From assembly GCA_905178155.1 (NCBI GenBank), contig CAJINV010000005.1, positions 2,172,054-2,236,053 on the forward strand: DNA of 64,000 bases, read 5' to 3'. Position numbers and translations under genes: made by a program. This DNA is from Amoebophrya sp. A120. Lineage: Eukaryota > Protista > Dinoflagellata. This document shows, in pieces, positions 1 to 63,553 of the stretch (position 1 is the stretch's first letter; each line of letters starts with the position of its first letter). Below the pieces are notes generated by a model. The model worked only from the letters and a program-made list of their open reading frames with translations. It was not told the DNA's origin and did no database searches.

Positions 1-2767
1 GCTAAAGCCCGCGAATGGAACCAGTGCGGAAACCTCCTGTTCCGCAAATCCGCCGCAGATGTCCCCTTTGGACGCGGAGCAGATACGGGAGATTTTGCGC
101 GCAGATTTCGAAGAGCTCGCAGGGGCAAACTCCGCAAGCACCTCAACTTCGGCGCATGACAAACTAAATAACGCAGGATCATCAACATCTTCCCAACCTC
201 CAAATAGAATAGACCAGCAGTCCTTTCAGTCCGAGGATTTTTCCCAGCAGACCAGCGAGTTTTTGCAGCAGAACTTCGAGCTCTACGAAGATATGGATTG
301 CAAAAATGTCTGGGTCTGGAAACTTGTAATGCTGCGTTGGGAATAATGAATGCTCTGTAATGCACAGTCAAGCATGAGAAATGTCTGCGCTTCTTTGTGT
401 TGCGTTTTTCGCATGACAAACTGCGTTTTTGCATGACAGGCAACAGGGTCTCTTCTTGGACACGCATCGCAAACTTTTTGGTCATGCCAGACAAGCATGA
501 CAAACTTGCAATCTTCCAGACCCAGACATTTTTGCATTTGATAGAAGACGCCTTCGACCTCTTCGGGGCGGTGACTGTGGAAAAGGCCGTGAAGTTGGGA
601 CAGTGCGACACGCTGGAGGAAATTAGCGATTACGTCGAGAGGCACCAACACGAACCGGATTGGGCGCTTTCGATGGAAGCGATCGACTTCCGGCAGACAC
701 TGGACCTGCTGACCAAGGTGCACGATATCTACGCGGCGAAAACTACGACGGAAAGTGAGAGTTTTGGAGCCGCGATGGAACTTACGCCGAAAGCGGGTGT
801 GGACGAGAGTGTCGACGAAGGTAAAGAAATCTGAAGCTGCGTTTGGTCACACAACTGATTTCAGTTGTTTATTCGTTATTCCTTTTGCATTCGCATCTAG
901 TTCTAGATCTACCATCTACGTTCGCCGTGTTATGAAAGAGTGCCTTCTTCTACGTAAGTGCCATTGACGAGCAAGAAGTCAAAAAAGATTATACAAATCG
1001 TCACATCAAAATTTTCCTACAGACGAGCAGCGCAACCGGCGGTTGGAGCTTTTGCACAAGATTTTTTCGAAGATTGCCTACCACCCGTTCGATGACAAGG
1101 TGCGGAGTGTAAAAGCCAAAGTTATTTACGACAAGATGTCCGCCGACTTACTGCTCCAAGGGAAAGTCGCAGACTTGATGGTGACCTGCGGTTTTCAGAT
1201 AAAAGCAGAGTCCCCACGGGGCAACAACGACGCAAACAACACGACGAGCATCGCCGCGCAGGTGATGCGCGTGAAGCAGGAGAAGTTGAATTTGACGGTG
1301 CAAAATGCGAACAGCCAGGTTGTTTTTCATTTCCCGCACCAACTCGACACGGACCGGAAGGAGGTGGTGCGTTTCCATCGCGTTTTCAGCTTACTCGAGG
1401 ATCTGGTCTCCAGCTTGCAAGTGGAGGAGCTGCAGGCAGTGGAAGTTGACCTTGCGCCCGGTGGCGCGACTTCTGCAACAGAAGTGCTTTGCTCCACCCC
1501 GAACTTGTCTTCCTCCGCACAGAGCAGCAAGAACACGGTAGTGGCTAGTACGCCGTCGATACTAGAGCTGCAGCCCCCTGTAATATTAACGCCTAAGGTC
1601 GTACAACAAGGGACGACTTCTAAAGCTTCCTCCTCGTCGTCCGTCGGCAGTCCCACCCCAAACAGCAACCAGTCCTTCTCGCCGCCCGAGCGCGGAGTTC
1701 ATCCTGGCGGAGAGACCACGAGCCGGAGCAAACCGCCGCAGCAGCAGAACAGGCCCGGTAGCGGGAAAAAGGAGCCCTACATACCCGGGAAGAAACCGCC
1801 GATCTCCAAAGACGAAATGCGCCTGAAGCGGCTGGCAAAGTTGGAGGAAGGGACTTCTGCAGGGAGTAGCCTTGGATCGACTGCTGCCAAGGCGAAGTCT
1901 TCCGCCGCCCGGTCGCTGCAGGGGGCGCTGGACTACGGGACCATGAGGAGAAAAGTGGTGAAGGAGCAGGATCGGAGGGAGAAAGAGCAGGAACAGAGAA
2001 CCGGCGTGGTCAGGCGGAGAAACAAGCCAAAGGCGACGGGGTACTGGGGCAACGTGTGGAGTCTGATGGAACACAACAACACGGCGGAGAATTTCCAAAT
2101 CCGGTCGGTGCCCAACCGGAACAACCCGGTATGGCGGTCCGAAGATGATCCGATCAAAAGAGGCAATGATGGCTTTTCGACAGGTGGTCGTGGCACTCCC
2201 TCGTTGTCTGAGCTGACGGACCGAAAAGCGAAGTTCTTCAACCTGCAAGACGTGGAAAACCTCCGGTGGCGCGACGCGATCCGGGACACCCCGAAATACG
2301 CAGAGTCGTGGTGGAACAGCCAGCCGCAGTCGACAAATTACAGCGAGGTGGCGCGAAGGAGTTACGACCCGGCGTATTTGGGGCGGAAAGCGCTGGACTA
2401 CACGAATCGTTTTCGGGGCGAAAACGGCCTGCCACCTTTGAAATGGAATGAAGCTATGGCGCAGATCGCGAAAAAGCACGCGGAACAGATGGCGAAGGGG
2501 GAAATGCCCTTCAGTCACGACGGGTTCAACGAACGAGTTAGGCAATTCCCCTTCCACAGCTACAGTTCAGCGGAAAATCTGGCGTATAACCAGGGGCACG
2601 CGGACACGGCCGGCGTCGCGGTAAACGGCTGGATACACTCGCCGGGACACTGCAAAAATTTGTTGTCCCTGACAAATTTGTGCGGGATAGGCGTCGCGGG
2701 CCGTGCGGATGGGACTTTCTACTTCACCCAGCTGTTTGCGAAAACGGCCGGGGGGCTGGCGCCATGA
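1..2767 (+). CDS. PUB-like + C-terminal CAP/SCP domain protein (5'-truncated by window)
   Basis: Frame open from position 2; joined across introner 292-543 and GT-AG intron 821-1022 to ORF 1043-2767. PUB-like ELLHKIFSKIAYHPFDDKVRSVK; CAP motifs NRFRGENGLPPLKWN, FSHDG, AENLA, WIHSPGHCKNLL, FYFTQLF. Confidence 0.8.
292..543. mobile_element. Introner family A (TIR element acting as non-canonical intron)
   Basis: TIR core TGCAAAAATGTCTGGGTCTGGAA / TTCCAGACCCAGACATTTTTGCA; TSD GAAGA (287-291, 544-548); removal gives ELYEDAFDLF in frame. Confidence 0.92.
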
Positions 2768-5037
2768 ATCGTTCTCATTCCGTGGTATTCTTGTACGTAG
2801 TAGACCCACTTGATGGCCGCGGCTCTGAAATTGCAAACCGTCCGCAGATGAGTTTTGCTTGATTTGAGAAATGTTACTGACTCGCTTTCAGGAACCATTA
2901 ACTCATGATGCAAATTCCGATTTTTCCTCAAGGGAGCAACCGCGACCGGACAGGAGACGGAGACGCTTAAGGTGCGGAGCATTTTTTCTCTAAGCGATTA
3001 GGATTACACTGCGGCATTGCTGTTCGCTTCTCTTCTGGTAAGTGTTTGCCTCTTCGTTTTGGCCTGCTGCTGCAGGGAAGCCAATATACCGCAGCAACCA
3101 CATCACAGCACGCCAGTGCGATGGTTCCGACTGGTACCAGGCCAGGCGCTCCCTGGGATACCCATGGCGCGGCTAGCTGCGCCCCATTTTGATCGTGCGG
3201 GGCCGCCAGAGTTGCTAGCCACGCACCGCGGAGGCGGTAGGACGCAACGGGCCCGGCGGGGCCCAAGAACGCGCCGAAGGCCGTGCATGTGTCGATCAAC
3301 CTGCCGACTTGCGGAAAGTGATGAGCCCCAAAGGCAGCGAAGCGGCGCCCGAGAGGCACCCGCGCCGGGCCAACAAGAGGGGCGCCCCGTGCCGCTTCCG
3401 GGCCCTGGTCTCCTCTTCGGAGGATGGGCGCGAGGAATGGCGCCGGATTCCTGCCGAGGCGGGAGGGGCGCTCGCCGAGCAGCTCGAGCCCTCGGCGCCA
3501 GCCCGGACGCGGCGCGGCCGGTATCTATTTCCGGCGCGGGCGAGCTGGAGGAATTTCGTCGACGGCAAGTGGTACCTGGGCCACGTGATCGACACGAAGG
3601 CGGCGGCCCGCCAGGTCTACAACCCGGGCAAGGATGTCCCGGCGGCCAGGCGCCTCCTCGCTTGATGCCGGCCCTACTTCTGCGGTGCGCAGTAAGGTAA
3701 AAGCCAAAAGAACTGCGCTGACAAAACACAGCAGAGAGCTGGCCCCGGCCCCGTGCAATATGCAGAACGAAGGCTGCGCAAAGCACGGGCCCGCAAGGGG
3801 CGGGCCCCTTGCTGCGAGACACGAGAGAGGCCGGGGGCTGCTTGGCGGGCCCTAGGTGCAGCGCCGCCCTGCGGCAGCGATTGGGGCGGCGCGCGCCAGC
3901 TGCGCAATTTGGCCGGCGCGGGCAGCGGGCCCGCCCGGAGGAACGAAGGCGCCCCGGCGCCGTAGCGGCGCGCGCCCGCGTCGGCAGTCGGCGGGGACAT
4001 GCCGCCGGGGCCGCTGGGAAACAGAGCGGCGCGAGGGCCCCCGACCTACCCGCCATCTGCTTCGTCGACCAGCGCCGCCACTGTGAATTCGACCAAAAGC
4101 ATTCTCGACTACATGCGGTAGCTGTCGCCACGCACGGCAAAACACTGCGCGCGCCTTGCATGTTGACAACACAGCCACAGCTTCTGGCTCTGCCGGGGCC
4201 CGATCAAATTCGGGCCGGGCCGACCGAGGGAGCGAGGCCAGGCCGTGCGGCTACCTGGAACGCTCGGCGGGAAAGAAGCAGGGCGCGGCGTAAATTGCAA
4301 GCGGCCCCCAGCGGCGGGTCCCGCAGCGACATCTGTAGCGAGACCAGCCTCGGCCCTCCTGCAGGCTTGAAGGACTGCGCGCCCGTTGACCTTCTTGACA
4401 GGCTGGCACTTCCGGCCGGAGGCGCTTGGCGGTGCTTCCGTCTGGGGAGAGGCACGCCGCAGCAGCATCTCGGGCCCCGGCCCTCCCGCGATGCGCCTCC
4501 TGCCGCGGCCGGCCTACCTAGCGCCGCCCGGCGCCGGGCGCCGTTGCACGGGTGGGCGCCGTTGCGCATATCGGCCCGCGGCCGCCGGGGTTGGCCCGTG
4601 CGACCACTGGCATTGGTTTCGGAAATTGGCGCCGGGGCCTCCAGGCCGGGCGCAGATTGGGTAGTGAATCTGAAGGCGCGACGTCGCCGTCTGCTTGCGC
4701 GTGCCTATATTGCTAGCAGGCCGCCGTGGCCGCCGCTCTCGATGCGCAGTGCCTCACTTTTCCATCTTCCGTATACGTAAGCACACATTGATTGAAAATG
4801 TTGAGGATATCAGGATCATCAGAAAACTTCTGTTCGCGCCACGCTCAGTCACTTAGAACGATCCTAAAGCAAGCAACCTGATCCGGAGATCAAATGAGGA
4901 GCTAAAAGCAAAAATGAAAGAAATGCCGTGATCCTGACCGAGTATCTACTTTTTTGCCTCTTTCCGAGTCAAGTTTCGACCTTTCTATTTTCTGAATTTT
5001 TCCCTCAGTTGACTTGAAAAGATCAAGTATACAACCT

Positions 5038-5562: not shown

Positions 5563-8500
5563 ATGACGACCACCCCGCTACTGCCCGAACCCGGGAGCAG
5601 TCCAGCGACGTCCTCCAAAACGCCGCTTGCCAACGGGGACGAGCCACCTAGCAGTAAAAGGGACAGTTCCAAAATCAGCCACGACGCAGATGGAGCATCC
5701 TCTTCTTCCGCCCACGAAAATAATGATCACACCCGTGACTCCAAGGAATCCACGCACAGCAGACGCAAGAATTCGAAGGAAAAGGAAAACTCCAAAGAAC
5801 CACACGGAAATAATGCACCTGCCGGTCCGTCGAAATACCGCAACAAGCGGGACAAAGGACAACATCAGCACCAGAGCAACAAAACCGACAAAACGAACAA
5901 CCACCCCTGGTGGCGGAAGCGGAAACGGAAGGAGTTGACCGAGGGGATCGTGAAACTGAAATACGACACGGAGGACAAGCAGTACGTGTTTATCACGAAT
6001 GAAGAAGTATCCGCCGAGTACGCGGACAGCCCCGACATCTTCGCGCTAAAACGCGACTTCAAGGACGGGGAATGGCCGCTGGTCAACCGCGGGGACAAGG
6101 TGAAATTCTACCTGAAACAGTCCGACGACGGCACGAAGCCGATCGCGAAACGGGTCCGGTACGGCGCGGACGCCGGCGCTCGGGCGGAGCGGAAGGAGCA
6201 GGTTGGAAGCAAGAAGGAGATTTTCCCGAATTACTACACCGTTGAGAAAGTCCGGGCCGGGTTGATGGACGGAAGTTTGCGGGAGGGGATTTTGCGGGTG
6301 AATCCGAAAAAACCGTCAACCGCGTACGTGGATTTGGGATCAGCCAAGGACACGGCGAACAACGAACGGGATTTGCTAATCCAGGGCCACTCAAACCGAA
6401 ATCGCGCGGTCCACGGTGACCGCGTGGTGGTCCGGATTTTGCCGGAAAGGGAGGAGGACGCGCGTAACGCAGAGCTGAAGGCGAAAAAGAAGATCGAGGA
6501 CAGGTCGGAAACTATGATGTTGAAAAACATGGCGAAAAAAGCAATCGACCTGCAGGACGAAGCACTAGGTGGTGACGCCAGTCCGAATAGACCGGCGACC
6601 GATCTGCAGGATGCGTTGGACGCCGCGCTGGCCGATTCCTTTGATAATTTGAATGTTTCTACGGGCGGTGACAAAAAAGCGGAGGAAAAATCCTCTGCTT
6701 CGAAACGAACCAACGGTGTTGATGCAGCGGATCTAGGATCCGACGAGGATGAGATTGAGTCCGACGCAGAAGCCGATGTGTTGGACGAATTAGCGGAGGA
6801 AGAGGAGGAGGATTGGAACGACGAGGAAGAAGACCGAAAAAGCAATTTCAACACGGCACAGGTCGTCTTCATTGCCGACTACTCCGGCCGAAATCGAAGC
6901 TTCGTTTGCACCCTGTGCCCGAACAATAGTGAAGGCACGGCGGGGAAGACGTCGATGGTGAAGGAGAACGAGAAGTTTGTGAAGGCTTGTCCGGTGGATA
7001 AAAAGTTCCCGTGGATTTTGATCTACTTGAGGGACGAAGTGAAGAAGAAGCTGAAAGTCCCGGGAAAACTGGACAAATTCATGTACTGGTCCGTGAAAAT
7101 CGACAAGTGGGACAGCACGAGCATATTGCCGCTCGGGAATTTGGCCGAGAAACCAATCGGCAAAGCGGGGGACGCCGAGGCGGAGGTGATGAAGGCATTG
7201 GAGGAAACGGAATTGGCGGAACACAACAAGGACTTTGACGACGACATTTTGGACGAGGTACTTACTTTTTTGATGCACAAATCTCAACTCTTCGTCATAG
7301 TCTAGAAGAATTGAGTTTATTCCTGTAGGTCTTGCTGTAGCTTACACCGCAAGAATTTTTGTGGGCAGTTGTAGAACCTCAAACTGCTGAAGTCGTGTAG
7401 GAGTAGCAGTTCCCTTTTGATTATATTTCGCACTAAAAATCCGTAGTTCGAATTCCTGCCACGACCTACTGTTTGCTTATAAAAATCCTCTTATCCCAGG
7501 TCGAAGAGATCGTCCAACGCACCACGGAAACCTTCGAAGAAATCGCGGAGAAGCGGATAGACCTCCGGAAAGAACTGAAAAACGGGGTCCGGATCATGAC
7601 GATCGACCCGAAAACCGCCCGTGATCTCGACGACGCCATCCACGTGAAGAAGATTAACAACGAAATAACCGAATTCGGGGTGCACATCGCCGACGTCGCG
7701 CACTTCGTGAAGCCGGGGTCACACGTGGACAAAATGGCGAAATTCAGATGCACCTCCGTCTACATGCCGGACCGCGTTCTGCCGATGTTGCCCCATGCCC
7801 TCTGCAACCACCTGTGCTCGCTCAATCCGAACGAGAACAAGTGCGCCTTCTCCGTGTTCTTCCGCATCGACAACAACGGCGAGTTGATGGTGGACGAGAA
7901 AAACGAGTATCAATTGCAAAAATGTCTGGGTCTGGAAGATTGCAACTTGTCATGCTGTCTCTGGATTCCAAAAAAATCTGTATTGCGTGACCAACAACAG
8001 GAGTCCAGTTTGTGTTACGAAGGGAGGGCATTTCTCATGCGGAATAGGCATCAGGAAGCCTTCTATCTAAAAATCTGTGATGCTAGATCATGCATCACGT
8101 GCACTATGGCTCATAAAAAATATACATCACAAATCCCGGAATCTTCCAGACCCAGACATTTTTACAGTTGATAACGAGCCCTGGATCGCGAAAACGGTGA
8201 TCAACACCTGTTGTCGCTTCAACTACGACCAGGTCCTATCAAATGTAAAAATGTCTGGGTCTGGAAACCTGTAATGCTAAAAATGAATGATATACGCACT
8301 GCAGTACACAGCTATGCATGACAAATTTTTTGGCTGCCATGTCTTACGTATTCCGCATGGCAAACTGCGTTTTTGCATGACAGATGAGAGGGCTTTTTCG
8401 TGCCTATGCAACACAGATTCTCGAGTCATGCCAGACAAGCATGACAAACTTGCATTCTTCCAGACCCAGACATTTTTGCATTTGATAGGTCCAGGAAATC

Positions 8501-11026
8501 TACGACTTCGGCGGCGCGCAGGCGTTGACCGGCGACGCGCGGCCGGAGGTCTACCACGGCGCGAGCTGGGAGGAGTGCGTGAAGGATCTGTTTCTGATCT
8601 ACAAGGTCTGCACCAAGATCCGCAACGCGAGGTTCGGAAACGGGGCGCTGTCGATGCACAAATCGAAGCTGATTTTCAAAACGACCGACGCCTCCGCCGG
8701 CATGCCGACGGGGTACGCGAAGGAGGTGCATTCCCCCTCGCACTGGGTCATCGAGGAGTTGATGCTGCTCGCGAACAAATCGGTCGCCCGCGTGCAGCAG
8801 AAGCACGACGTGTTTGACAGCTTAGCCGTTCTGCGGAACCACCCGCCGCCGGACGAGAAAAAGGCGAAACGGGTTTTGGAAACCATGCAGCTCTGCGGAA
8901 TTGAGTACAGCAACTCCACGGCGGGAGACCTACACAAGTGCCTCACCAAGATCCACAAGATCTACGGAGAGGAAGTCGCGGCAACAGCCAGCATGCTCAC
9001 CATGAAGTGCGGGATGCGGCCAGCGTCTTATTTCATCGGGGAGGACGAGCCCCCGCACCACTTCGCCCTGAACTTTGACCAGTATACGCACTTTACAAGT
9101 CCGATCCGAAGGTACGCAGACGTGATGGTGCACCGGGTTCTGAACGCCATCTTGGAGAAGAAAACGAAGGAGCAATTCATGATCGAAGATTTGGACGACG
9201 CGGACCGCGAGGCGGTGCCCGAGAAGGATGACAATCTGCTCGGGAAATTAGGCGGGGGAAGGGGCGGAAATAAGCACGCGGAATTGAACACCGACGGACT
9301 GAGCGACGATGACTTGAACGACCAAGCTGGCAGCTTGCGGGGAACGCACAGGTAGGGTGATTTTTGTAAGTAGAAGTACAAACAAAGTGAAATTTTTTTG
9401 AAGCAGTTTTGTGTGTAGGAGGATGCGGGGGATGCGAAGGTTCGGGTAGGTGGAAAAATACTTTCACACTCAAAATGCGTACTACACAAGTCAATTTTCT
9501 AGTTGTCTTAATGCCGAAGCCTAATGGTTGTACATGACAAGCATAAAACTCCAGGCGTGGTGGCGGTCCCAAGCAGAACTACCAGAAAAACCTGAAGAAC
9601 ATGATGGACGACTACAATTCCTCTGGCTTCGTTCAACAAGACACTCTTCGCCCGAAAAAGGAAGACTACCCAGAGGCAAAAACCGCCACCGCGGCAGCTG
9701 CTTCTGGTGATGCTAAACCCACAGACGGTAGCACAACTGGGCCGGAGTTGAATGAGGACGGCACATTGAAGGTGGATGATGACGACAACAACGAGGAATC
9801 CGACAAGAAGTGCCAGGCGAACATCGCGATGGGCAACCAGTGCAAGTCGTGCAACAAAAAGAAAAAGGCGTCGAAGGACTGCCAGGAGGAACTGGACCGC
9901 GCGTGGTTCTGCATGCTGCTCCGGGACCAGAAGAACTGGTGGTACCGGGTATCCTAAGTGAAAACGTCCCCACACCAGAGTCAAATTGGGAAATCTGCTA
10001 GACAAATCCACCAGCTTTGGTTGTTTCGCATGACAGGCTTGCCCTCGTAGTGTAATCCTGTTTAGCTTATTCAGCAGCATCACAGATCTGGCATATCTTG
10101 CTGATTCTAGCATCACAAAGCCCAAAACACGACTAGAAAATGCGTCTCATGGGTCTCGGCATGAGAAACATTCTCAGCATGCAGATTTGCATTACAGCTC
10201 TGGGGTGGGGACGTTTTTACAAATGATACCGGGCCGCGACGGTAACCGAGATCCAGCCGGACGGCATCACTGTGTTCGCGCACGAGATTGGGAAGGAGAA
10301 GAAAATTTTTGTGACTGACATCCGGACGCACCACGACATCCCGAACCTGTTCGTAAAGGAGGTGAACGACGAGGTGATGCTTCCGGAGGAATTTGAGTAC
10401 TGGAGCAAGTCCCACATGAAGGTCACCTGGAGCAACAAAAAAGTGGAAGACACGCAGTTCCTTTACGGAGACGAAAGACCAGACTTGGAGGAAACCGAGG
10501 GGCAAGTGCTTGGAAGTACTATACGTTTTTACTTTAGCTGTCTTGTTTCGTGATTGATAGAAGCCGCGTCGCTATAAAAAGTTTACTATCTTGAGGTCCT
10601 ACATGATTTCGTACACATGCAGAAAAATTCTCAATCGCCATTGCTATCCGAATAACTACCACAGGCGACGTCGCTCCCCCGCCGGGAATGGACGTGATAG
10701 ACATTGAACAGATGACGGTGGAGCAGGACATCCATCTCCTCTCCGTGGTCCCCATTGTACTGATCCCGACCAACACCGTCCCAATAGACTTTGTGATGCT
10801 GCTCGTTTCCCCCTACCATGCGCAGTGGCGAAAAGTGGAAATTACGGACAAGGAGAGGCGGGGGTTCAACAACGCACCGGTGGAGTCGTTCGATGAAGAC
10901 GGCGACTCGGATGACGACGACAACGAGGACTACGGAACGCAAAGACGACCGCCGAAGAACGCGAAGGGAAAAGGAAAAAAAGGCGGAAAGAAGGGCGGTG
11001 GCAAAGCGAGAGGGCGGGCGAGCTGA
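5563..11026 (+). CDS. DIS3L2: DIS3L2-like RNase II/RNB family 3'-5' exoribonuclease
   Basis: RNRAVHGDRVVV (CSD), TIDPKTARDLDDAIH, GVHIADVAHFV, TSVYMPDRVLPMLP, HWVIEELMLLAN, HFALNFDQYTHFTSPIRRYADVMVHR; no PIN domain seen. GT-AG introns 7258-7499, 9352-9554, 10516-10664 plus three introners. Confidence 0.88.
7908..8173. mobile_element. Introner family A
   Basis: Family A TIRs; TSD ACGAG; removal gives DEKNEPWIAKTVIN. Confidence 0.92.
8237..8487. mobile_element. Introner family A (also readable as GT-AG intron 8233-8488)
   Basis: Family A TIRs; TSD GGTCC; removal gives NYDQVQEIYDF. Confidence 0.92.
9950..10228. mobile_element. Introner family B
   Basis: TIR core AAAACGTCCCCAC / GTGGGGACGTTTT; TSD CCGGG; removal gives WWYRAATVTEIQPDG. 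Confidence 0.9.
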
Positions 11027-14300: not shown

Positions 14301-17300
14301 ATGGCCCCGAAGAAGGAAGAGAAGGCCCCGAAAAAGGAGGCCAAGAAGGAGGAATCCAAGGAGGCCAAGGAGGTGGACCTCTCCGTGAAACCCCCGAAGC
14401 CGGATGACGCCGCCTTCAAGAAGCGCACGGACGAAGTGTCCGCGGAAATCGACGCCAAAAAGGCGGACATGAAAAAGCTCACCGACAAAATCTCCGGAAG
14501 GAATGAAGGTATACTAGAACGCTGACATGTTCATTTTTGAGAAGAAATTTATGCTCTACAGAAAAGTTGCTCTTGCTTCCTCCCCAGATTTAAATTTTGC
14601 TTTTTCATGATCATTTCTCGCGATTCCATTATCTTTATCTCCCAATCATTGATTCGATTGTGGCACTAGTAATTGCAAATTGTGCAACACAAAAAATCAT
14701 ACTATCCATCAGGTAAGGAGGCATACGATGAGCAGAAGCAGGCCCTCTACAACAGTATGAACAGCGTCAAATCCGAGCAGCAGGCTCTCATCGCACAGAA
14801 GAAGGCCCTGCAGGACCAGAAGCGCAACACAGAGAAGGAAGGTAGCACATCTGATGCTTTAGTTTTAAAAGAGGGAGTTTTTTAGAATTCTGTACACGTC
14901 CTGTTGCGGGACGGAATTTAAAGAGTGAGAGAGAGAAAAACGTCGATGTCCAGCAATGTCTTTCGAAAAAGAGAGTGTGAGAGCCATCTGATTGTCTGCC
15001 GAAAGGTGGAACCCCGGAAATTAGCCTTTAGATTTTATGACGCATGTTGATCATGCCCAGCAAACACTTTAAAAATTTGTTTGACCACGCCTCAATCCAT
15101 CGAAAAAACAGAGCGTGAGGCTAAGCGTCAGCTGTCCGCACTGGAGAAGGATGTTGCTCACTTGACGGAGGAGGGCATCGACAACGAAATCAAGAAAATC
15201 GAGTACACCATGGCCACCCGATCCATGTCGCTGAAGGAAGAGAAGGAATACATGCAGCAGATCAAGAAGTATTTTCATTTGATAATTTGTCTTTCTAGAC
15301 TTTGCTACTTGCAAATAGCTCGGTGTCGTGTCAAGCGATAGAAGTCATGCGATGGTTTTCATCTTTAGTGTGTAGTGACTTAGTTTTCGAATCGGTGCTG
15401 GCTATAACATGCATGGGAAGCTGCTGCTGCTGTAATACATCAACGCATATGCACACTTTCACTTTATCCTTATCAGGCTGAAGGCCCAGCGCCCCCAGGC
15501 TCAGAAGCAGCAGAAGGAGTACGAGGCCATGAAGGCGAAGGTGGATTCCGGCGCTCAGGTCGACCATAACGCTACTTTCGCTGGTATGCATTGCAAATGT
15601 GTCTGGGTCTGGAAACTTGTGATGCTGACTTGGGAACAGTGGACACAATGCAATACGCAGCCAAGCATGACAAGTTCTTAAGCTGCTATGTGTTGCAAGA
15701 GCTGCATGACAGGCAAAGTGCGCTTTTGCATGACAGGCAGGCGACTCTCATCTTGCTCATGCAGCACAGAGTTAGGAGTCATGAGAAACACGCATGACAA
15801 ACTTCCATTCTTCCAGACCCAGACATATTTGCATTTGATAGCTGACCAGCTGACCCAACTGGAAGCCGCCATCAAGGAGAAGAAGAGCTCGCATGAGGAC
15901 TTGTAAATACAGATTTTTGCTTTCGATTTGTTGTGGTGCGACCAGTGGTGCAACTCGAAACATTATAAGTAGTCGTATCGGTCTTGGCCTGATGGAAGTC
16001 GGAATGCAAATTCGAACACCAAATTTATCCTCGTCTAGCAGCACTTGTGGAACTCAGAGTTGCGGAAAGGGGATGTCAATATCTAAATCCCGCAATCTAT
16101 CCAAAAACACAGCTATGAGCAGATCCAGAAGCTGAAGCAGGATCGTGACTCCAAGATGTCCGGTGTGTCGGAACTCATCGCCAAAAAGAAGCAGCTGGCC
16201 GAAGACGTCCAGGAGTTGGTTGCCAACCGCAACGCCATCCACGAAGAGAAGCGCGCCATGCAGAAGACGTATTGGAAGATTTTGATGATTGTTTGTGTTG
16301 CAGATAACGAATACGGAATGCAGCATATTTACCTGCTCCGTGTGTGAATGACTTTGTGTTGCATGCTTTGCAATGTATGCTGTCCTCTGTTCCACTCTCA
16401 TGCAGGCGCCCTACAAGAACTAATGATTGGCAATAACACTATGACTATCCTATCAGATTCAACCAGTGGGAGCAGGCCGAGCGCAAGAAGCGTCAGCAGA
16501 AGATCGAGGCTGAGCGCAAGGAGTGGGAGGCCAAGGCCGAGGCGGAGCGCGCCAAGTGGGAGCTGGAGCAGCCGAACCCGTACTTGAATGAAACCACTTT
16601 GTTGGAACAGACTCTGGACTACTGCAAGAACTTGCTGCCGAAATCCGAGGAAGCCAAGGCTGAAGAGAAGAAGGAAGTCAACGCTCCGGTATTTTAAAAT
16701 CATCATAATGATGACACTGTGACTGATAAGTATCAATTGAACTGCATATAACTGTTCGCATAGTCAGTTGCCGTATTTTGTCATGCGGAGACTGAATCAT
16801 CTAACGAATTTGTCTAGCAAAATCGCATATGTCAACACTAAAAACAGGATGGCGTCCGAGTGCTGATGTCCAAGAAGGACCGTGACACGGAGATGTACTT
16901 CGAAGCCACCAAGAAGAAGAGCCTGAAGAAGAAGGGTATGGTCATTTTCTCATGCGTGCTTTTGGATTACAGCAGCATCTGTTCATCGTAATTGATTCTC
17001 CCAGAATGATGTTGTCAGTCGTTTCTCCTGCAGAACGAGGTTCTTTATTATCCAGAAATCACGACATTACGGACACGGAGCAATCAATACTACAGGTGGC
17101 GACAAGGCGAAGGCTACGGCCATCAAGCACACGGCGGAAACGTTCGCGATCTTTGACCAGCTGAAGGTGAAGGCCCCGATGACCACGGAACACATCCCGG
17201 CGCTCATGGACCAGCTGAACGGTCAGCTCGCGTCCTACATGGAGAAGGTCAAGGTCTGGGAGGCCGAGCGCGCCGCCAAGCTCGAGGCCGCCAAGAACGC

Positions 17301-17346
17301 CGAGGCCGATGCCCAGGCCACAACTTCAACCAACGCGGACGAGTAA
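14301..17346 (+). CDS. Coiled-coil protein, Bfr1/proton-pump-interactor-like
   Basis: Multi-exon K/E-rich coiled coil: KPDDAAFKKRTDEVSAEI, IDNEIKKIEYTMATRSMSLKEEKEYMQQI, QPNPYLNETTLLEQTLDYCK, IKHTAETFAIFDQLKVKAP; several GT-AG introns and one introner. Confidence 0.65.
15585..15840. mobile_element. Introner family A
   Basis: Family A TIRs; TSD GCTGG/GCTGA (1 mismatch); removal gives ATFA(D/G)QLTQLEAAI. Confidence 0.88.
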
Positions 17347-18995: not shown

Positions 18996-21900
18996 ATGCC
19001 GCCGAAATCCAAGGCGGCGCCCAAGAAGGAGGCCGGGCCCGCGGCGCCGGCCGCGGGGGCCGCGCAAACCGGCGGAGGAGGGGGCACGACGAGGCTACAG
19101 ATCATGCTAGATAAGAAGATCGTCACACCGGCCGCGTTGCAAGTACCCGCGGTCAGCTCACCGAAGGTGTCGGATAAGACGCTAGAAAAAACGTACGATC
19201 CGCACGGCACGGTAAAGAGGCAAGGCTCGGAGTTCGGGTTAGCAGCGAAAGCAAAGGTCGGTTTGGTGTAGTTGTTGGTGCTAGAGCGAGATCGATGTTC
19301 AGAAGCCACAGCCATAGCTGCACATCATGACATGTAGATTGAAGATGGGGTGACACTACACCATTTTTTTTGCATGGCACATCAAAGAAAACCGCACCAC
19401 AGTCTATCGAAGGGCACGTAAATCTGGAGGAGATGGTCGAAAAGTACTTGACAGAAACGGAAACGCAGACCCTCTTCTATCAAAATGAAAAATCCCCACT
19501 CCTCACATAAAAACGAAATTTCTGATGCTGAATTTGCGTAAGTACACAGATGTCTTGCAGTAGAGGACTGCAGGCCCATATCATGCCAATATGGAGAGGC
19601 TTCTGCCTAGGCACCCAGCATGAGGAACGTCTGTGCTGTAGTCCCAACAGCATCACAAATCGCCTCCATAATGGGGCGGAGCCTATGCCGTTGCCTTCTT
19701 GCAAAACAGACGCGATTCGTGATCACAAATAAGCGTCGCAAATTCTCTGAGGTGTGCCGTTTCGATATGGGGAGGGGGGATTTTTCCTTTTGATATCTTC
19801 GCGGTCCCAAGTCTCTGTGTCGCCCTCGATGACACGCAATTGCACGGCGCAGTATTCCTTCGATAAAGTTCGTGTAGTTTCGGATGTCCCTAAAAATGCT
19901 GATTCTGGTGCCCTCTGTCTCTCCTGCATGAAAACGAGGCTTTTCGAGGTGAGAAGTAGCAATCGATCGGAGCAGCGCAAACCTGCAGATTTGCAGCACA
20001 GAAAGATGCTTTTAAAAAAATCAGATAAGCGCCAAAAACAAGAAGTACGAGGAGCTGTTACTCGCAAAACGCAACGCCGCGGACCAGTTCCGGGGGCAGC
20101 ACCAGCAAACCTTAAATCCGGTGATGAAAACGAAGGAAATACTCGCACTACCACCAAAAACCCACTCGATGGGGGTGGACGCAACCGAGTGGGACATACA
20201 CGACACGTTTGCCACGAAGGCGATTCCAAAGCACGAGCAGATCGAGGGGAAGATCGTGCATGACACAGAGGTATTATTTGTATGCAAAACCCACCGTCGG
20301 TATTAAAGCTTTTAGGCTGCTGAATAAATCTTGATCTTCTTCTTCTGACTCTGTTGAAACCACTTGTTCCACGAGAGAAGTGCGGCTTTTTTCATGGTGC
20401 TGGAATGCAAAGAGCCAACAGTACTTATGAATGTAGTTCTAGAGGACCATGATGCAGCCGCGCAGGTGATGTTGCTGTTGTGAAATAAAAGGACCACCCA
20501 ACAGGAAAATAAAAAAACAGCTCCTGGTCGAGTCCGCGCTGAAGAAGAAGGGTTGCCTTTTCCCGTTAGAGGAAGCCTCCACTTCAGCGGAGGAAGGAGG
20601 CGATGCCCCTACCGGGGCTGCAGTTTGGACGTTACAGGAGGACGCGGACTTGCTGTCGCTTACCCACTCTGCGGCAATCATGGAAAAATCTGTGGTACAA
20701 AACGTGTTCCACGGGCAGCAAATGACCTACAGGAATTACCCAACTCTGGAACAGCTCGCGAAGGACGACGAAAAATGGCGACAGCAGAGTACTTATGATT
20801 TGCAAATATGTCTGGGTCTGGAAGGATGCCAGTTTTGTCATGCACATTTTGCATGACTCCTGATGTCTGTGATGCATGCCCTAGCATCACAGACTTTATG
20901 AGGGCTCTCCGATGCCTATACCGCATCACAAATGCCCTCTCGCCGTGGCAAAAACTGGACCTCTTTTGCTGTTCATGCAATACAGATTTATTGTAGAATC
21001 CAAATCCAGCATCACAAGTTGCAACCTTCCAGACCCAGACACTTTTGCATTTGATAGTACCCAAGTAGACAGCGACGCGGAGCAGCGACTAGGGGATGTG
21101 GGCAGTGTATGCAAAGAAAAAAGTGTTACAGTTACACATTGTGTTGCAGGACCGACAAGGCAGACAGCCTTTGTCATGCAGGAAATGCTTTGGAGCCTCG
21201 ATTCCTTCGTGTTTTCCCTTCTGATGTTTGCATTACAAGTTTCCTCTGCCACACAGAGAAAATTTGTGATGCAGAAATTCCAACAAATGTGTAACTGTAA
21301 CACTTTTTTCCTGTGATACAGTGGCGCGGAGGGGGAGAAAAAGGAGGAGGGGAAAGAAGGTAGGGATGTTTGATTATTTTGCTAGAACTACAACATCACG
21401 AATGACATTTTCGTTTTGTTGCTATTCATGTAGTTTCTGTCCCAGCATGTCAAACAGGTACTCACAGAATGAAATGTTCTACTCCCAATGCTGGCCTCCG
21501 GCTGCGGCATAACAACGAATATGATCGCATCCGCTATGAATTTCACTTTTGGCTCATTTGAAAAATAAAACTCTATAAAGGTGAAGCACCTCCTGAGGGC
21601 GAATCCAAGCCGGCGGACGTACCTGTCCCCCCAGTCGACTCATCGCACCCGCACCTCGCAGATTTGTTTTCGTTTGACGCGCCGGAGCTCACAAAAGGGC
21701 TGGCGACCACGTGTGCGGAATGGAACTCGCACCAAAACGACCTGCTCGCGGTCGCATACGGAGACACAAGTGCAAGCATAGACGCGCTGTCTGCAAGAAG
21801 AGAAAAGGACGGAGCAGCAGGTAGGATTTTATGTGAATAGATAAATCCGAAGAACGCAAGTGTGGGGGTCTTTCATGGCATGCTCGATTATTGGTTATGT

Positions 21901-26057: not shown

Positions 26058-26121
26058 AACCTAGGAAAATACAAGACGCAATCCTTTCCCATGACAGAAT
26101 ACGTATGTTCCAGTATCTGGC
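26058..26121. repeat. ~64-bp local duplication (second copy split by TA element)
   Basis: AACCTAGGAAAATACAAGACGCAATCCTTTCCC...TATCTGGC recurs as 26146-26159 + 27305-27354. Confidence 0.85.
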
Positions 26122-26159
26122 ATCAGGTTCACTTGCTACCACTTCAACCTAGGAAAATA

Positions 26160-27302: not shown

Positions 27303-27323
27303 TACAATACGCAATCCTTTCCC

Positions 27324-45336: not shown

Positions 45337-48300
45337 ATGCGTCGTACTACTTCTATTCGCGTGCTGCGCAACTACAGTTCGCAGCTCCTCTCAAGGCGAG
45401 TGCTACTTCCTCTCCTGGTTTTCTTCTTCCACCACGCGGCAACTCATGTGACCGAGATTTGCGCGCGACAAAAGCTCCTCCGGCGGGAACAGAAGCTGCT
45501 CGAGCTAGACCAGGACGAAAAAAAGGACGAGGACGACGATGAGAAAAGTGACAAAGAAAAAGAGAAAACAGAAAATCCAGATAAAAAAGACCTGGAAGAG
45601 GAGCAAGATCAAGCGAATGAGAAAGCCTCGAAGCGGAACCCCCTGGAAGAGAAGTCGGAAGAAGGCGATGCGAGTGACGTGCCGGAGGTGCTGGACTACA
45701 GCGCCATGGTGGAGCACCTAACTGGATTGGTAGAAGAGGCACTGCCATCAGCACAAGCGGATAAGGAAGAGGGGGAGGAGAAAACGGAAGGGAAAAAAGA
45801 GAAGAAAGGTAAGCCAGATAAAGACGATGGTGCAGAGGGGGACGCTGATGAAAAGGATAACGCGGACGACAAGAAAGAAGGAAAGAAATCAAAAAAAGAA
45901 AAGCCTTCGGACGAAGCAGCAGACAACCCGCAGTTCGACGGCGAGGACGCAGACGCGGAGAAAAAGGAAGAGAAGCGTGATGACGACGATAAAAAGGAGG
46001 ACAAGGAACCGAAAGATGAAAAATCCTCCGGCGCCGGTGAGGACGACGGCGATGACAAGAAGGACCAGAAAAAGAATAGTGACGCGCCCGGCGGTGAGAC
46101 GGACGACGCTGGAGAAAAGGAACAAGGGGATAAAGGCGATGATGGAAAAAAACCGGGCGGTGGAGAAGCGAGTAAAGATGACGCCGACGGTAAAGGCGGC
46201 GCAGAGGGAGATGGAGACGAAGCTGACGAGGAGGACCACGACGACGAAAAAGACGCCTTCGCAGCCATACAGCTGCACGGGGACGGAAAGATGAAATTTG
46301 ACGGCGAAGACGAAAAGGAAAAAAAGAGAAAAACCGACGACGACGATGATGATAGCAGTAAAAAAGACGACGACAAAGACGAGAACGGAGCACTGAGTGA
46401 TGAAAAGGGTGAGAGTGATAAGGAAAAAGACACACCAGCATCAGGAGGAGGTAAAAAGGATAAGAAAGATTCCGACAAGAAGAATTCCAAGCGCGAACAA
46501 CCAAAGCCGATCGAGAAAAAAGATCCGTTAACGGCGTTCAAGGAAAGTCTAGAAAAGCCGCCCGTCCTAGGCGAGTCCTATCCTGTGCAAAAGTATCGTA
46601 CTCGTACTAATTGCAATCATGCATGACAAATCTAATTGCAATCATGCATGACAAATCTCTCGTACTAATGCATTTTGTTGCCCCATTCTCCACTCTATGT
46701 CTATGTCTGTGTACCCGCGAGTGGTTTTATCTTTCTCTGAATTTGCGGAAGATGAAGATATGTAGCAAATTTGTAGACCAAGCAGAAGAGAAAGATAAAA
46801 AAGAAGTAAGAATGAATAGTCTCAGCCATACTTCAGCGCTTTTCAGTGCCACTTGTAGACCCGGAATATGCTCAAGTGCCAACAGGGCGAGAGCCCTGCA
46901 AGATCGGGCGACGTGAGTAAGTGCAGACGGGAAAAACGCCAAAGATACCCGCGCCTTCTGCTTAACTGTGTGAAATATTGTGTCGGCCCGGTTCTGCTCA
47001 GACAGGCTGGATCCCGTAGATCAGATTTCACATGTTAAGTAACGCACACCGGCCTCCTAGCAAAAAATTAATGATGAATTTATATGAGAAAGAGGGGCCT
47101 AATCAAAAAAAAAAATCATGCATGACAAATCTTGTTTCTTAGCGAAATCAGCATTACAAGTTCCATTTTTTCTTCTGGAAAAATTTGCATTGCGATTTAT
47201 ACTAATACGATACTTTTGCAATGCATAAATCCCGCGTGTACACGATAGACCCCGGGAAGTTCAACGGGTATAATTGCGTCGAGAAGCGCAAGGGGATGGA
47301 TCCGGTCACGTTCTTGACCACTGAAAAGATAATCGCGTACAAAGAGACGCCGTGTGTGGAGGTATAGTAACAGCTAAATGTTTGCTGCTTCTGTCGTGAT
47401 GAACTGTAGCACTAGCAAATACGCTATTGTATTCGATTTGTTTTTTGCATTTGCCCCAGAACTTGAAATTCAGATAGTGACTTTTCTTTTTGTGGCAAAA
47501 AAATCCAATCACAATAAACCCAGGAATACACTTCCTTCAAGCCGGAAAAGGGTTGGCTTTGGCCGGCGGTCTCCACCTATCTCGCCACCCAGCACTTTCT
47601 ACCCGGCACCTTTGACAGCAAGGAGCAGCAGGCGGACATTTTGAAAATTCTGAAGTCCTTACCCGTCGAAAAACTGGACGGGATCCGCGCGCCGAAGGTG
47701 TACGGCAACGTGCTGTTCGACGGAAAAACGCCACTGGAGTACTTCGACGTTACCCTGGGCGTATGGATTGCGAATATGTCTGGGTCTGGAAGATTGCCAG
47801 ATTTGTCATGCAGGTTTTCCATGACCCATGAGGTCTGGTATGTAGGACATAGCATGACAGATTCTGTGAGAGTTCTATCCTGCCTATCCTGCATGAGAAA
47901 CTGCCTCCCGATTAGGTAAAAAGTGGGCGACAGCTTCTGGTAATCAGAATCACGCAACACAGATTTTTACATGGTCCAGATTTAGCATGACAAGTTGCTT
48001 TGTTCCAGACCCAGACATTTTTACATTTGATAGGGCGTGGCCATGCGGAAAACGAGCTGGGATGAATTATTGGAACCCACGGAGTATCAACTGCAAAAAT
48101 GTCTGGGTCTGGAAGATTGCAACTTGTCATGCTGTTTTTGGACTCTAAAAAAATTTGTATTGCATGACCAGCAAGAGGGGTGCGCTTTGTGCTACTTACA
48201 CGGACAGGGCATTTCTCATGCGGAAGGTGCATCAGGGAGCCCTCTAAAAGTCTGCGATGCTAGGTCATGCATTACAGGCGTCACGGGTCATGAGAAATAT

Positions 48301-49724
48301 GCATGACAAATCTTCTTGCATTCTTCCAGACCCAGACATTTTTGCACTTGATACGGAGGGGGAAGACCCACAGTTGGGCGGCCAGCTAAAGGCGGAGGTG
48401 GAGCGGCAGGACAAAAAGTACTATTTGACTTGTTCATTTTTGTGTACATGATGTAGTAGTTTTTTCGCTTCCTCCTATAGTAATGCTAATGCCTTAGTCC
48501 AGCAAACGAAAATCTAAATCAACAACATGAAACACCACCAGCTACGCCCTCCTGAACGACGTGCCGGAAGAAAGTGCAGACCAGGAAGAGCCGACGCCTG
48601 ACAAGGGGCTGTCCGCGAAAGCAGAGGCGAAGGAGGAGAAGAAGGAGGAGGGCGAGAAAAAGCCATCCGAGGAAGAGGACGAGACACTATACGTATAAGA
48701 AAAGTTTGTTGCTTGTCATGCTGAACAGGTGGTTGTACTGTATCGAATGAAGTTGCAGGCAGCTGCGCATGCACTTTGATTGTGAGAAACGAGCTCGAAA
48801 AATTTCGTTGCGAACACGAGTGACTTATTCATGCCCTGTTCGGTAAAACAAAAACCGAAAAACTACAGTACGGCATCGGTTTCGGCTGTGTCCTCATCAT
48901 TATTGGCATCGGCGGCGCGCTAGCGCAACAGAAGACGGAAGAGAAGGTTCCGCAGCCTGACATTGAACAGCCAGAGGACAAGAATGAAGAGGAAATTAAC
49001 GATATCACAGGAAAAAGTGTTAACGTTGACGGAATTTGTGACGCAGCAATGCATCACAAAACGTGTAAGAATTTGTCATGCATAGCATGCATATTGGGCT
49101 ACGTTTGTGATGCATGACTGCGATCTGTGAAAACCGCTAACGTTAACACTTTTTCTTGTGATAAACGAAGAGGATCTGAAGGCTGACCACCAGGCGCTAG
49201 ACAAGGAATTACCGCCGCAGACCCGGGACGAATTGATGAAGCGGGTGAACGACGAAATGAACGATAATTTGCACAAAGCTGCTGCGGTAGACGACGCAGA
49301 TGCTAACGCTGCTGCGGCTGCTGTTCCCCCGCCAGCCCAGCCACCTTCCTCCATCACAGAAGAGCTACCCAAATTGACTCCCTTGCCGAAGCTGAAAGCG
49401 CCTGCGAGGCGACAAAGCACCAGTCAGAATAAAGACGTAAGGGGGGCTGCTGCACCTACTACTGCGTCAGGAGCAGCCTCGCTACAACAAACCGCGAGCA
49501 AGTCGAAGCCGGCTGCGGTACCGACAGCACAAACGAAAGCAGGCAGCGGCAGCGCCGGGCCAGCTTCGCCCAGTTCCCCAGCTTTGGCGTCAAAAGGCGC
49601 GTCGCCCGGACTGGCTTCGAAGGCTGGGTCCAAGGCGGGTTCGATGGCGGCGCCAGCGAGTTCACCGGGACAGTCTTCCCCGGCGGGGAAAGCGACTTCG
49701 CCGGGGAGCTCGAGAAGAGCATGA
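45337..49724 (+). CDS. Hypothetical D/E/K-rich type-I membrane-like protein
   Basis: N-terminal hydrophobic segment, long acidic tract, TM YGIGFGCVLIIIGIGGALA; continuous frame after removing four introners and three GT-AG introns. Confidence 0.62.
46579..47227. mobile_element. Introner family D (long, 649 bp)
   Basis: TIR TATCCTGTGCAAAAGTATCGTA / TACGATACTTTTGCAATGCATA; TSD AGTCC/AATCC; removal gives PVLGESRVYTIDPGK. Confidence 0.82.
47762..48032. mobile_element. Introner family A
   Basis: Family A TIRs; TSD GGGCG; removal gives DVTLGVAMRKTSW. Confidence 0.92.
48085..48353. mobile_element. Introner family A
   Basis: Family A TIRs; TSD CGGAG; removal gives LEPTEGEDPQL. Confidence 0.92.
49003..49163. 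mobile_element. Introner family E (short, 161 bp)
   Basis: TIR TATCACAGGAAAAAGTGTTAACGTT / AACGTTAACACTTTTTCTTGTGATA; TSD AACGA; removal gives EEINEEDLKAD. Confidence 0.9.
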
Positions 49725-50364: not shown

Positions 50365-52191
50365 ATGTCGCCCCCAACCGCGTCCTCCTCTTCCTCCTCG
50401 CGGATTCAGTTTCACCACTTTCCCGAAATCGACAGCACGCACACCTTCGTCGAGCGGACCTATGGCTCGTTCGACCCGAGCATCCTTACCTGCGTGTCTG
50501 CGGACTACCATATTGTGAGGAAAAATCCCCCCTCCCCATGTCAAAACGGCATTTCTGATGCTGGATTTGTGTACACAAATCAGCTTTGTATTGCAGAGAG
50601 ACATTGCGGCCAGATCCCCAGGCTAGGTAGGGGCGAATGGGTCTAGTTGTTCAGCATGGCAAACGGCTGCCCATTAGGCCCAACAGCATGACAAACCGCT
50701 TCCATAATGGGGCGGAAGCTTCTGCCCTTCTCTCCTTGCAAGACAGACGGGATTTGTGGCCTCAAATCAGCAAGACAAATTTTCGAAAGCATACCTTTTC
50801 AATATGGGGAGGGGGAGTTTTTCCTTACGATATACCAGACCGCGGGGAGAGGGACGAACAAACGCGTGTGGTCCGCGCCGAAGGGAAAAAATCTGCTCAC
50901 GACGTTTTACTTCACCCTGCCGGACCGGTGTAAGGCGCAGGCGGCGTCGTTTTTGCAGGTACAGGTTTCTTTGTTGTTCAGCATCGATCTCTTGGTCGAA
51001 GCCGGTTCCTTGATCGTGCATTTCATGTTTACGAAGTAGGCCACTCTACTGCACAAAACTTCAACTTGACCATACGTGAAGATGTTTTTGACGAGGCTTG
51101 TTGTACTTCGTTCACAAAATAACTGCACGGAAAAAAACTAGGTCGCCGCCGTCTCTTTTCTCGACACGGTTCGGAGAAAAGCCTGTCGCGGCGTGGACAT
51201 CAGCCGCTTGCAGTTTCGACTGAAGTGGCCGAATGACGTCATGTGCAACGAGAAGAAAATGGGCGGGATTCTATCCCGCATGGTCGCGGATCCAGTCCGA
51301 CACAGCTCGAGTTCACGGGACGTCAGCAGATTGATCCAGGGGACGAAGCCATCAGCGGGAGGTGGTATGCCAGTGGTTTTATCTTCCAGTAGTAGCACCA
51401 GCGCCGTGAACAACGCGACATCCAATACCTCCGCCGTTGAACTCTCCCCCATAATCGGCACAAACGTAAACACGTCTTTCGTGCAGTCCCCGAACAAAGC
51501 CGAACACTCCGTCGTCCTCGCAGATTTGACCCCTCCGAGTCTGACGCACGCCGCGGCGGCGACGGCAGGGAGCAGTGTGGGCGGCGCAGTTGATGGTGTC
51601 CACCAGCTGAGCTCCCCGACGTTTGCGGAGAAATTAAGTAAGGAGATCCCCGGGACGCAGTCCTATTCCCTTCCGATCGAGAATTACACAAGGGATTTCT
51701 ACTACAGCGGAAGCAGCAGCAGTGAGAGTGGTACTATCGAAAGCAAGAAAGAGAAGCGGATCGGGATGATACTGTCCCTCGGGTTGAACGTGAATTTGAC
51801 GCAAGACGACTTAGATTTGGTCATCGCCAGCAACAACGGGATCAAAAATTTCGCCTGGCCGCCGACCAGCTTGCGGCAAGAGATCGGGAACCCCGTGCTG
51901 CAGTTTGAAGTCGACCGAGTCAAGGAGTTAATCGCTTTCGACCTGTACGATATCATCCTCAAATTCGAGCAAGTCGGGTACCTGCAGTTTCTGCGCGCGA
52001 TCAACGACAATTTGCTGTACGAAAACGAGAAAATCGTGTTTGCCCCGCGGGGCCGGGAGCACACCGACCGGGTGGAGGGGATCTTCCGCGGGCTGGACGA
52101 CGAGGGGTGGCTAATTTTGGAGTCCCTAGTCACCGGCGGGACGGAAAAATACTGCAGTGGCGAGCTGTGTCCACCGGTGAAAGTCAGGTGA
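50365..52191 (+). CDS. Biotin protein ligase (BirA/holocarboxylase synthetase family)
   Basis: EIDSTH, ADYQTAGRGTNKRVWSAPKG, LKWPNDVMCNEKKMGGIL, LGLNVN, GIFRGLDDEGWLIL; one introner and GT-AG intron ~50959-51141. Confidence 0.9.
50511..50832. mobile_element. Introner family C
   Basis: TIR GGAAAAATCCCCCTCCCCAT / ATGGGGAGGGGGAGTTTTTCC; TSD TACCA; removal gives SADYQTAGRG. Confidence 0.9.
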
Positions 52192-63100: not shown

Positions 63101-63553
63101 GAGGAAGGTCGTGCAAGAACAGATTCAGACAGCCCAACCGCTGCGTCGGAAGAGGATCAAGAATCGTCTGACGGTGCGCCATATCAAGTGTAAAAATGGC
63201 TGGGTCTGGAAGAGTGCGCGACTTGTTATGCAGCTTTTCCATGACCCATGAGGTCTGGAATGCAGGACCTAGCGTGACAGATTCTGTGCGATCTCTTTCA
63301 TGCCTATCCTGCGTGAGAAACTCCCTTGCGACTTGGTCAAAACTGGGCGACTTTTGGCAATCATGCAACACAGATTTTTGCATTCTTCAGATTTAGCATG
63401 ACAAGTTGCATTCTTCCAGACCCAGACATTTTTACATTTGATACGCCATCCGCTGCGGAATCTTCGGCGGGGTCTGAGGGAGCGGTAGAGGAACCGGTGG
63501 CTACTGAAGATGCTATTGGAGTGGGAGAGCCAACTTTGGTGGAGGAAATGTGA
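60168..63553 (+). CDS. GT31 (beta-1,3-galactosyltransferase-like) glycosyltransferase with long N-terminal extension
   Basis: FAIMSRRNQKEVRAGVRRTW, ESYRTINVK, FLLRCDDDIYL, FPLYARGSLWIMSSDL, PDDPMMG; two GT-AG introns and one introner; start may be ATG 60531. Confidence 0.78.
63182..63443. mobile_element. Introner family A
   Basis: Family A TIRs; TSD CGCCA; removal gives SDGAPSAAESS and extends the CDS to the stop at 63553. Confidence 0.92.

Follow-up and report, generated by a model that had tools for sequence, protein, structure and literature searches.

Introner families of Amoebophrya sp. A120 share a TAT…ATA terminal code and an inner box that probably reflect a common transposase lineage

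Analysis of a 64,000-nt stretch of the Amoebophrya sp. A120 genome (assembly GCA_905178155.1, contig CAJINV010000005.1, positions 2,172,054 to 2,236,053 of the forward strand; hereafter the window) uncovered 23 introners, repeated introns bounded by terminal inverted repeats (TIRs), which fall into five families and have in common TAT…ATA ends, a 5-bp target site duplication (TSD), and a repeated inner box. These elements are probably non-autonomous TIR transposons, introners of the MITE type (miniature inverted-repeat transposable elements), and their shared end code probably serves recognition by one transposase lineage and not splicing. At stake is how tens of thousands of non-GT-AG introns are removed in Amoebophrya without a detected U1 small nuclear RNA (snRNA), and what moves them. 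The origin of the window agrees with its label: exons 8489-9352 and 17098-17343 match proteins labelled Amoebophrya sp. A120 at 100% identity, and for the protein encoded by the first exon the nearest named ortholog, at 75%, comes from strain A25.

A window search that imposed no motif, requiring TIRs and an exact 5-bp direct repeat, returned 28 matches: 20 elements with TAT…ATA ends, one shifted duplicate of one of them, and seven weak, unrelated matches. A looser second search allowing a TSD of 4/5 added three TAT…ATA elements, for a total of 14 elements in family A, four in B, two in C, one in D, and two in E. All 23 combine TAT…ATA ends with a 5-bp TSD, exact in 20 and 4/5 in three. Other direct-repeat lengths gave no TAT-starting match in the window, and the 6-bp search yielded three matches, none at TAT. 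The elements recur across many unrelated genes, and alignments between families extend over at most 65 nt, so the families are not trivially recent derivatives of one element.

The original prediction, made from the sequence alone, held that five families with different TIRs share the terminal code TATS-N4-G-N-AAAA. For the window this description is accurate and the observation is confirmed, including the five quoted termini and the exceptional T9 at the left end of the family C element at 19478..19795 (exact TSD). Among the 46 window ends, T1 is held in 45, A2 in 45, T3 in 46, S4 in 45, and G9 in 45, followed by A11 in 44, A12 and A13 in 46 each, and A14 in 40. The strict motif is found at 35 of these ends and TAT-N7-AAA at 42, where 28 of the 46 ends come from family A and just one copy represents family D. 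The 57,581 nt outside the elements contain the motif twice, where 0.87±0.81 occurrences would be expected. Positions 5-8 had been said to vary even between the two ends of one copy, and the ends indeed agree at position 7 in just 9 of 23 elements and at position 8, as at position 4, in 16 of 23, compared with 21-23 of 23 at positions 1-3, 9, and 11-14.

A larger sample was obtained from one metagenome scan with a family A end, which gave at least 130 loci (536,247 nt, partly overlapping) containing the same families, with matches for 22 of the 23 window elements at up to 96% identity. The window and these related metagenome assembly loci were merged into a set of 377 elements in 21 clusters with 754 ends; all merged-set figures rest on the at least 130 loci listed, and 171 of the 377 elements are family A by design of the scan query. 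With its elements masked, the window had no matching part in the related loci, so there were no orthologous insertions to compare. In paralogous empty sites (L003/L004) a single copy of the 5-mer is present, so that the TSD was made at insertion. The paralogous gene copies L003/L004 and L055/L069 are about 89-96% alike and carry different introner insertions, while one insertion is common to L055 and L069, making such pairs useful for dating.

Motif-free matches in the related loci carry TAT at one or both ends in 272 of 290 cases. Across the 754 merged ends, TAT is present in 739, S4 in 720, G9 in 609, A11-13 in 642, A11-14 in 546, and the strict motif in 452. When ends were located by positions 9-30 alone (320 of 367 pairs retained, TSD of at least 4/5 required), T1, A2, and T3 were intact in 631, 637, and 630 of 640 ends, respectively. 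In three families of 10, 15, and 19 copies, G9 or the A-run is largely or wholly missing, with G9 in 0/20, 13/30, and 2/38 of their ends. The universal part is TAT(S) with the 5-bp TSD, and G9 and the A-run are common yet optional. A code shared by all families thus stands for the near-universal TAT and S4 but not for G9 and the A-run, which are absent from whole families; the proposed check of end profiles for missing G9/A11-14 conservation, run on the 377 elements, gave the same divided answer. Median family lengths in the merged set range from 110 to 375 nt. Separately, a 323-nt element (L016, 1958-2280) with a perfect 20-bp TIR starting TTGG lies within a 5-bp repeat and is possibly a non-TAT family or a case of shifted boundary.

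The families also share a sequence in their interiors. The box GCATGACAA occurs in 37 copies in 20 of the 23 window elements, representing all five families, compared with 6 copies in the other 57.6 kb. Its consensus is GCAT(G/C/T)ACAA, and a position weight matrix (PWM) built from interiors finds approximately five sites per element in 370 of 371 elements; 468 of these sites lie 30-49 nt from an end and point toward that end. In 102 elements with close relatives, private changes affect 2.3% of inner-box positions (45/1920) vs 4.5% elsewhere inside (617/13681), rates whose terminal branches include pre-insertion history and which do not identify the constraining machinery. Placed on the terminus, the box PWM scores best at starts 4-5 (means −0.7 and −1.0, vs −2.9 to −9.1 elsewhere), with a strong fit in some families and a poor one in others. 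By this sequence comparison, positions 4/5-13/14 of the predicted code (S-N4-G-N-AAA) are likely a degenerate outermost copy of the inner box, and we propose that they are common but missing in some families because this outer copy is worn.

The box could alternatively be the host branch point, present on both strands, since U-N-A-C is part of it and its sites are most frequent 30-49 nt before each end, and a near-match lies about 20 nt before the AG of one canonical intron. This seems very unlikely: 132 canonical introns (ab initio predictions, some surely wrong) hold 20 antisense boxes and seven sense ones, of which none comes within 40 nt of the acceptor, and in exonic elements box copies on the host sense strand are slightly outnumbered (504 vs 589, p 0.011). 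As the host canonical branch motif the box was rejected on the lack of sense copies near these acceptors, and no branch motif was identified in the canonical introns of the window. The sense-strand shortage is perhaps due to a CAG-ending variant that creates a cryptic acceptor.

If the end code served splicing, as the original prediction allowed in reading G9 and the A-run as a built-in 3′ pyrimidine tract in either orientation, its backing would be the constancy of G9 (45/46) and A12-13 (46/46) in the window and, in the oldest copies, fewer mismatches at positions 11-14 (13/386) than at 15-20 (33/482). Most other evidence points elsewhere, and we judge a splicing role for G9 and the A-run unlikely. 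In 225 exonic elements set in host orientation, no position differs between 5′ and 3′ ends at p<0.01, and the two ends carry 56 vs 55 mismatches. Paired 5′/3′ tests on 126-346 elements gave isolated cells at p<0.05 only, with no paired difference over positions 1-16 in the 346 elements at the loosest strand margin; an excess of G4 at 5′ ends among unpaired ends (76/205 vs 47/199) was gone in the paired test (57/57). Both element orientations are found in exons (21 vs 31), as are families that have no A-run. Selection on RNA pairing was not seen, either as G·U vs A·C counts (189 vs 175) or as sense vs antisense folding energy (p 0.26-0.54).

Used as a clock, the two TSD copies differ by 3.0% per site (306 elements), and the per-copy mismatch of 1.1% for TAT, 1.9% for G9, and 1.4% for A11-13 is near half of that value. 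Neutral decay from a perfect start suffices for the end positions, with moderate constraint still possible, and in the suggested decay check G9 and A11-13 decay at about the TSD-clock rate. A comparison of exonic with non-exonic elements was uninformative, because the 49 "non-exonic" copies are not more decayed and are perhaps misclassified. Host canonical acceptors have no U-tract, with frequencies of T 0.26 and A 0.34 at −20..−5, and TTTT is found within the last 25 nt of 11 of 80 host introns vs approximately 25% of mid-intron windows. The lack of end asymmetry, the lack of G·U bias, decay at the TSD-clock rate, and acceptors without a U-tract together suggest that the code is likely a transposase signal. 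Host acceptors (e.g., of the introns at 14509-14712, 15269-15476, and 16269-16456) are A/C-rich and G-poor, and several end in TATCAG or ACAG.

In the explanation that we favor, a transposase would cut at the TAT/ATA tips and bind the GCATGACAA-type box repeated about five times per element. The enzyme would likely be an integrase-type DDE protein, similar to IS3EU/GingerRoot or Ginger. The host would remove the element and one TSD copy from the transcript, most likely with the 5′ cut one base outside the tip (N|TAT, like host GTAT donors), where a closing hairpin may bring the ends together. Of the earlier suggestion of a shared transposase, the TAT…ATA ends, the 5-bp TSD, and the inner box common to all families give indirect support, and the enzyme itself was not found in a search covering the window and about 0.5 Mb of related loci. 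The proposed scan for long elements with the same ends and an open reading frame (ORF) returned members of 448-2940 nt with no recognizable transposase. The longest (L058, 6264-9203; 2,940 nt, in a family whose usual length is approximately 110 nt) has perfect 20-bp TAT-type TIRs, an exact 5-bp TSD, and an interior of repeated motifs with no Pfam match, and is a candidate deletion derivative of an autonomous element. GC-rich islands at 3000-4750 and 37000-39200 (59-62% in 2-kb bins) contain long overlapping ORFs, also with no Pfam match.

Several points weigh against a single transposase lineage reading the ends. A transposase was found neither among 32 window ORFs nor among 136 long ORFs in the related loci and 75 ORFs that come from long elements or GC-rich islands, and three viral-contig scans gave no matches. 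The available passages of Farhat 2021 (PMC7789003) likewise report no transposase in A120 and argue against transposase-mediated mobilization. Positions 15-30 are family-specific and matched between left and right ends, which a single binding specificity leaves unexplained. Noise in the TSD clock leaves room for moderate host constraint on TAT (1.14%, confidence interval 0.73-1.71), the stability of positions 11-14 in the oldest copies runs the same way, and symmetry would be expected of a splicing signal too if it worked at both ends and in either orientation. The missing enzyme, in the window and related loci as in Farhat 2021, would also suit families that share ends by descent from one ancestor, with a motif now functionless and RNA-based copying through reverse splicing. 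We give that account little credence, since the TSDs are fixed at 5 bp, both orientations occur in exons, interiors are unalignable across families while the tip and box persist, and change in the box is half as fast as elsewhere in the interior. Under the favored transposase explanation, the inner box, being independent of family, could serve to probe for the missing autonomous element and offers a ready substrate for binding.

Removal of the elements from transcripts was followed through published gene models and reading-frame continuity, on which all splicing inferences for the elements rest. Excision of the element plus 5 nt gives the best coding continuity in 229 of 377 elements, the other two frames being best in 9 and 6, with 133 undecided. 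The test locus was the host Dis3L2-like gene at 5563..11023 (+), which carries three canonical GT-AG introns and three introners with exact 5-bp TSDs, two of family A (7908..8173 and 8237..8487) and one of family B (9950..10228) within the Dis3L2/RNB gene. Element+5 removal matches published proteins at 4/4 junctions, comprising 3/3 in Dis3L2 (that of 7908..8173 gives published protein P0001) and the 15585 junction, and the Dis3L2 junctions are then gapless against the A25 ortholog. Removal of element−1, element+2 (an NT…AN intron, one extra codon), or element+8 was excluded at the three Dis3L2 junctions tried. A 972-nt family A element in the Rpb1 gene (RNA polymerase II largest subunit; L026, 5001-5972) also leaves a continuous frame after element+5 removal, and element length is apparently not limiting. 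Judged by these gene models, the host appears to remove the element with one TSD copy and thereby restore the protein exactly.

Because of the 5-bp duplication, six or more placements of the junction give the same mRNA. A simulation in which each of 195 junctions was slid to its best partial match to GT-AG/CT-AC, a rule that is an assumption about aligner behavior, reproduced the published dinucleotide spectrum (r 0.98 and 0.95), which comes from one 1,322-copy A120 family whose ends were not checked. Since sliding alone reproduces these dinucleotides, the published variety of splice sites is likely a poor guide to the real cuts. Of 225 exonic elements, 18 allow a GT-AG placement vs a null of 8.6±2.9, and the elements do not have canonical U2 GT-AG boundaries. 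The cut register is down to six candidates, which can be read at imperfect TSDs.

One register would give the tip a second use, in which TAT supplies positions +2..+4 of a GUAU donor to a relaxed U1-less spliceosome. Such an intron would start at the last TSD base and end four bases past ATA; this idea is compatible with the transposase explanation, concerns TAT only, and is in our view possible though somewhat short of probable. In its favor, predicted canonical donors are GTAT in 39 of 66 GTA starts (39 donors among the top 80 predicted introns, GT[AG] imposed) vs 43 of 206 for GTA-T inside the same introns, and of the 10 introns whose positions published proteins fix, 5 start with GTAT. In the available parts of PMC7789003, snRNP27 is undetected in both strains (Table S6) and U1 is also undetected in A120; loss of SNRNP27K is associated in yeasts with +4 U donors, according to the passages available from PMC10581693. 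Changes of T3 at 5′ ends are to C in 6/6 cases, which gives the donor ranking second in frequency in the 132 predicted host introns, and TSD mismatches are lowest at positions 4 and 5 (11, 8, 9, 4, and 5 over the five positions).

Imperfect TSDs bear on the same register. The family A element at 15585..15840 lies in a host coiled-coil gene (14301..17343, +; one introner and seven canonical introns, five starting GTAT), and its 4/5 TSD has the last base of the upstream copy changed from A to G, giving G|TATG, a change missing from the published protein. An Asp at this junction is kept in two homologs and in the gene model; offset 0 is excluded and −5 to −1 remain. A second A-to-G change of that TSD base is polarized by a paralog (L055), while three other polarized cases are neutral or opposite (synonymous in L069 and L053; upstream fourth base changed at L004 8204). 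The −4 register, in which ATA+N mimics YAG, fits 15585 equally, and published splice dinucleotides cannot discriminate between registers; their NT/AN excess was rejected as register evidence. A broken TAT is not rarer at 5′ than at 3′ ends (7 vs 9, p 0.80), T1 changes alone (1 vs 6) are a post hoc count, position +5 is A/T in the host but C/G in the elements, and a G excess at TSD position 4 (z 3.2) fits a symmetric target preference (p 0.68-0.89). The resemblance to GTAT makes a specific prediction on intron 5′ ends, and for strain A25, where the inverted repeats begin with TTA followed by two purines, mimicry would predict GTARR-like donors. Taken to its full extent, the reading would unite the thousands of TAT-ended A120 introner families in one clan whose mover is a single integrase-type transposase, reading TAT and repeated GCATGACAA boxes, with the tip co-opted as a GUAU donor mimic, a U1-less spliceosome cutting all of them at one fixed register (N|TAT … ATA-NNNN|) with no conserved acceptor, and splice-site variety being an alignment artefact of the 5-bp duplication; this composite is a tentative and rather doubtful proposal.

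The remaining window elements add the following detail. The 252-nt family A element at 292..543 has an exact 5-bp TSD, and element+5 removal restores the frame on the + strand; the transcript of 8237..8487, described above, folds into a closing stem (z −8.5). Further family A elements with exact TSDs lie at 22337..22579, 22952..23209 (T1 changed at the right end), 29556..29817, 30116..30377, 47762..48032, 48085..48353, and, in a galactosyltransferase gene, 63182..63443, while that at 20794..21056 has a 4/5 TSD whose difference is synonymous. Two more family A elements occupy a PP2C gene, one at 33800..34055 in the orientation opposite to the 30116 element and one at 34131..34386 with a 6-nt deletion within the right TIR. 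Family B is also represented at 23256..23535 and 24654..24937 (both exact TSD) and at 43690..43977, after an AP mu-subunit exon and with A2 changed at the right end. The second family C element is at 50511..50832 (exact TSD), and family E at 21108..21318 and 49003..49163 (161 nt), both with exact TSDs. The family D element (46579..47227, 649 nt, TSD 4/5) contains no Pfam match in its two longest inner ORFs, and its 25-bp tandem duplication at 46607-46658 copies the inner box exactly.

Two other repeats stand apart. An approximately 1.14-kb element at 26161-27301, unrelated to the TAT families, has imperfect TIRs of approximately 35 bp, TA on both sides, and a GC-rich interior with no Pfam match, a pattern we take to be Tc1/mariner-like; it adjoins a local duplication of approximately 90 bp (26060-26160; 52-nt repeat 26070-26121 / 27303-27354). 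A tandem array at 30948-31396 has a 167-bp period, 2.8 copies, and two near-perfect palindromes of approximately 40 bp per unit.

Compared with known systems, the window elements correspond to the A120 introners of Farhat 2021 (PMC7789003), sharing the organism label and the form of repeated introns with inverted-repeat ends and direct repeats; they have the TAT-N7-AAA TIRs (42/46 window ends; A11-13 in 642/754), boundary repeats, and presence in many genes. That paper, in its available text, gives the inverted-repeat motifs as TAT, seven less-conserved bases, and at least three A, so the core end motif was in print before; the paper also describes repeats of 3-5 nt and splice sites that vary widely, whereas the window elements have a 5-bp TSD. 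G9, S4, and GTAT donors are not mentioned in that available text, although the logos of Fig. 3 and S25 may show G9/S4, and the inner box (also absent from its main text), junction ambiguity, and GTAT resemblance were not found in the literature searched. In the passages available from Gozashti 2025 (PMC12130899), most TIR families among 56 of the 58 A120 rows are labelled "Unknown". Family 38 of that study, called Ginger-like, has a 5-bp TSD, TA/TA termini, TIRs, and Copia/Gypsy-like ORFs; by description rather than sequence, it shares the first three features with the window elements but is about 810 bp long with ORF remnants, which the window elements do not have.

The elements have the features of MITEs, being short and TIR-bounded, with long members that have no transposase Pfam match and a TSD made at insertion, and MITE transposase binding to subterminal repeated motifs has precedent in the part of PMC1636448 available. 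IS3EU/GingerRoot elements, as far as the available passages go, share TA..TA termini (PMC10045372, PMC12730594), with TAY ends in fungal IS3EU, but usually have a 6-bp rather than a 5-bp TSD. The 4-5 bp TSD of Ginger2/TDD, in the descriptions available, is matched by the window elements. Ginger2/TDD termini are TG-type, unlike the TAT…ATA ends of the window. An A120 Ginger-like element without Ginger termini is nonetheless described in the same passages of PMC12130899. The 5-bp TSD of hAT5 is matched (PMC12730594, available part) but no hAT protein was seen in the window or related loci, and neither hAT5 nor subterminal-repeat MITEs are reported as introns in the passages of PMC12730594 and PMC1636448 available. 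Similar in behavior are the Fritillaria and euglenid introns, which in the available portions of PMC11282704 and bioRxiv 10.1101/2025.08.15.670264 are MITE-like with TIRs and TSDs and are removed despite non-GT-AG ends, with U6 m6A lost in F. borealis; their termini and lineages differ from those of the A120 elements, and a shared origin is not indicated. Ends and TSD alone do not assign a superfamily; the window elements are A120 introners and, at the same time, MITEs.

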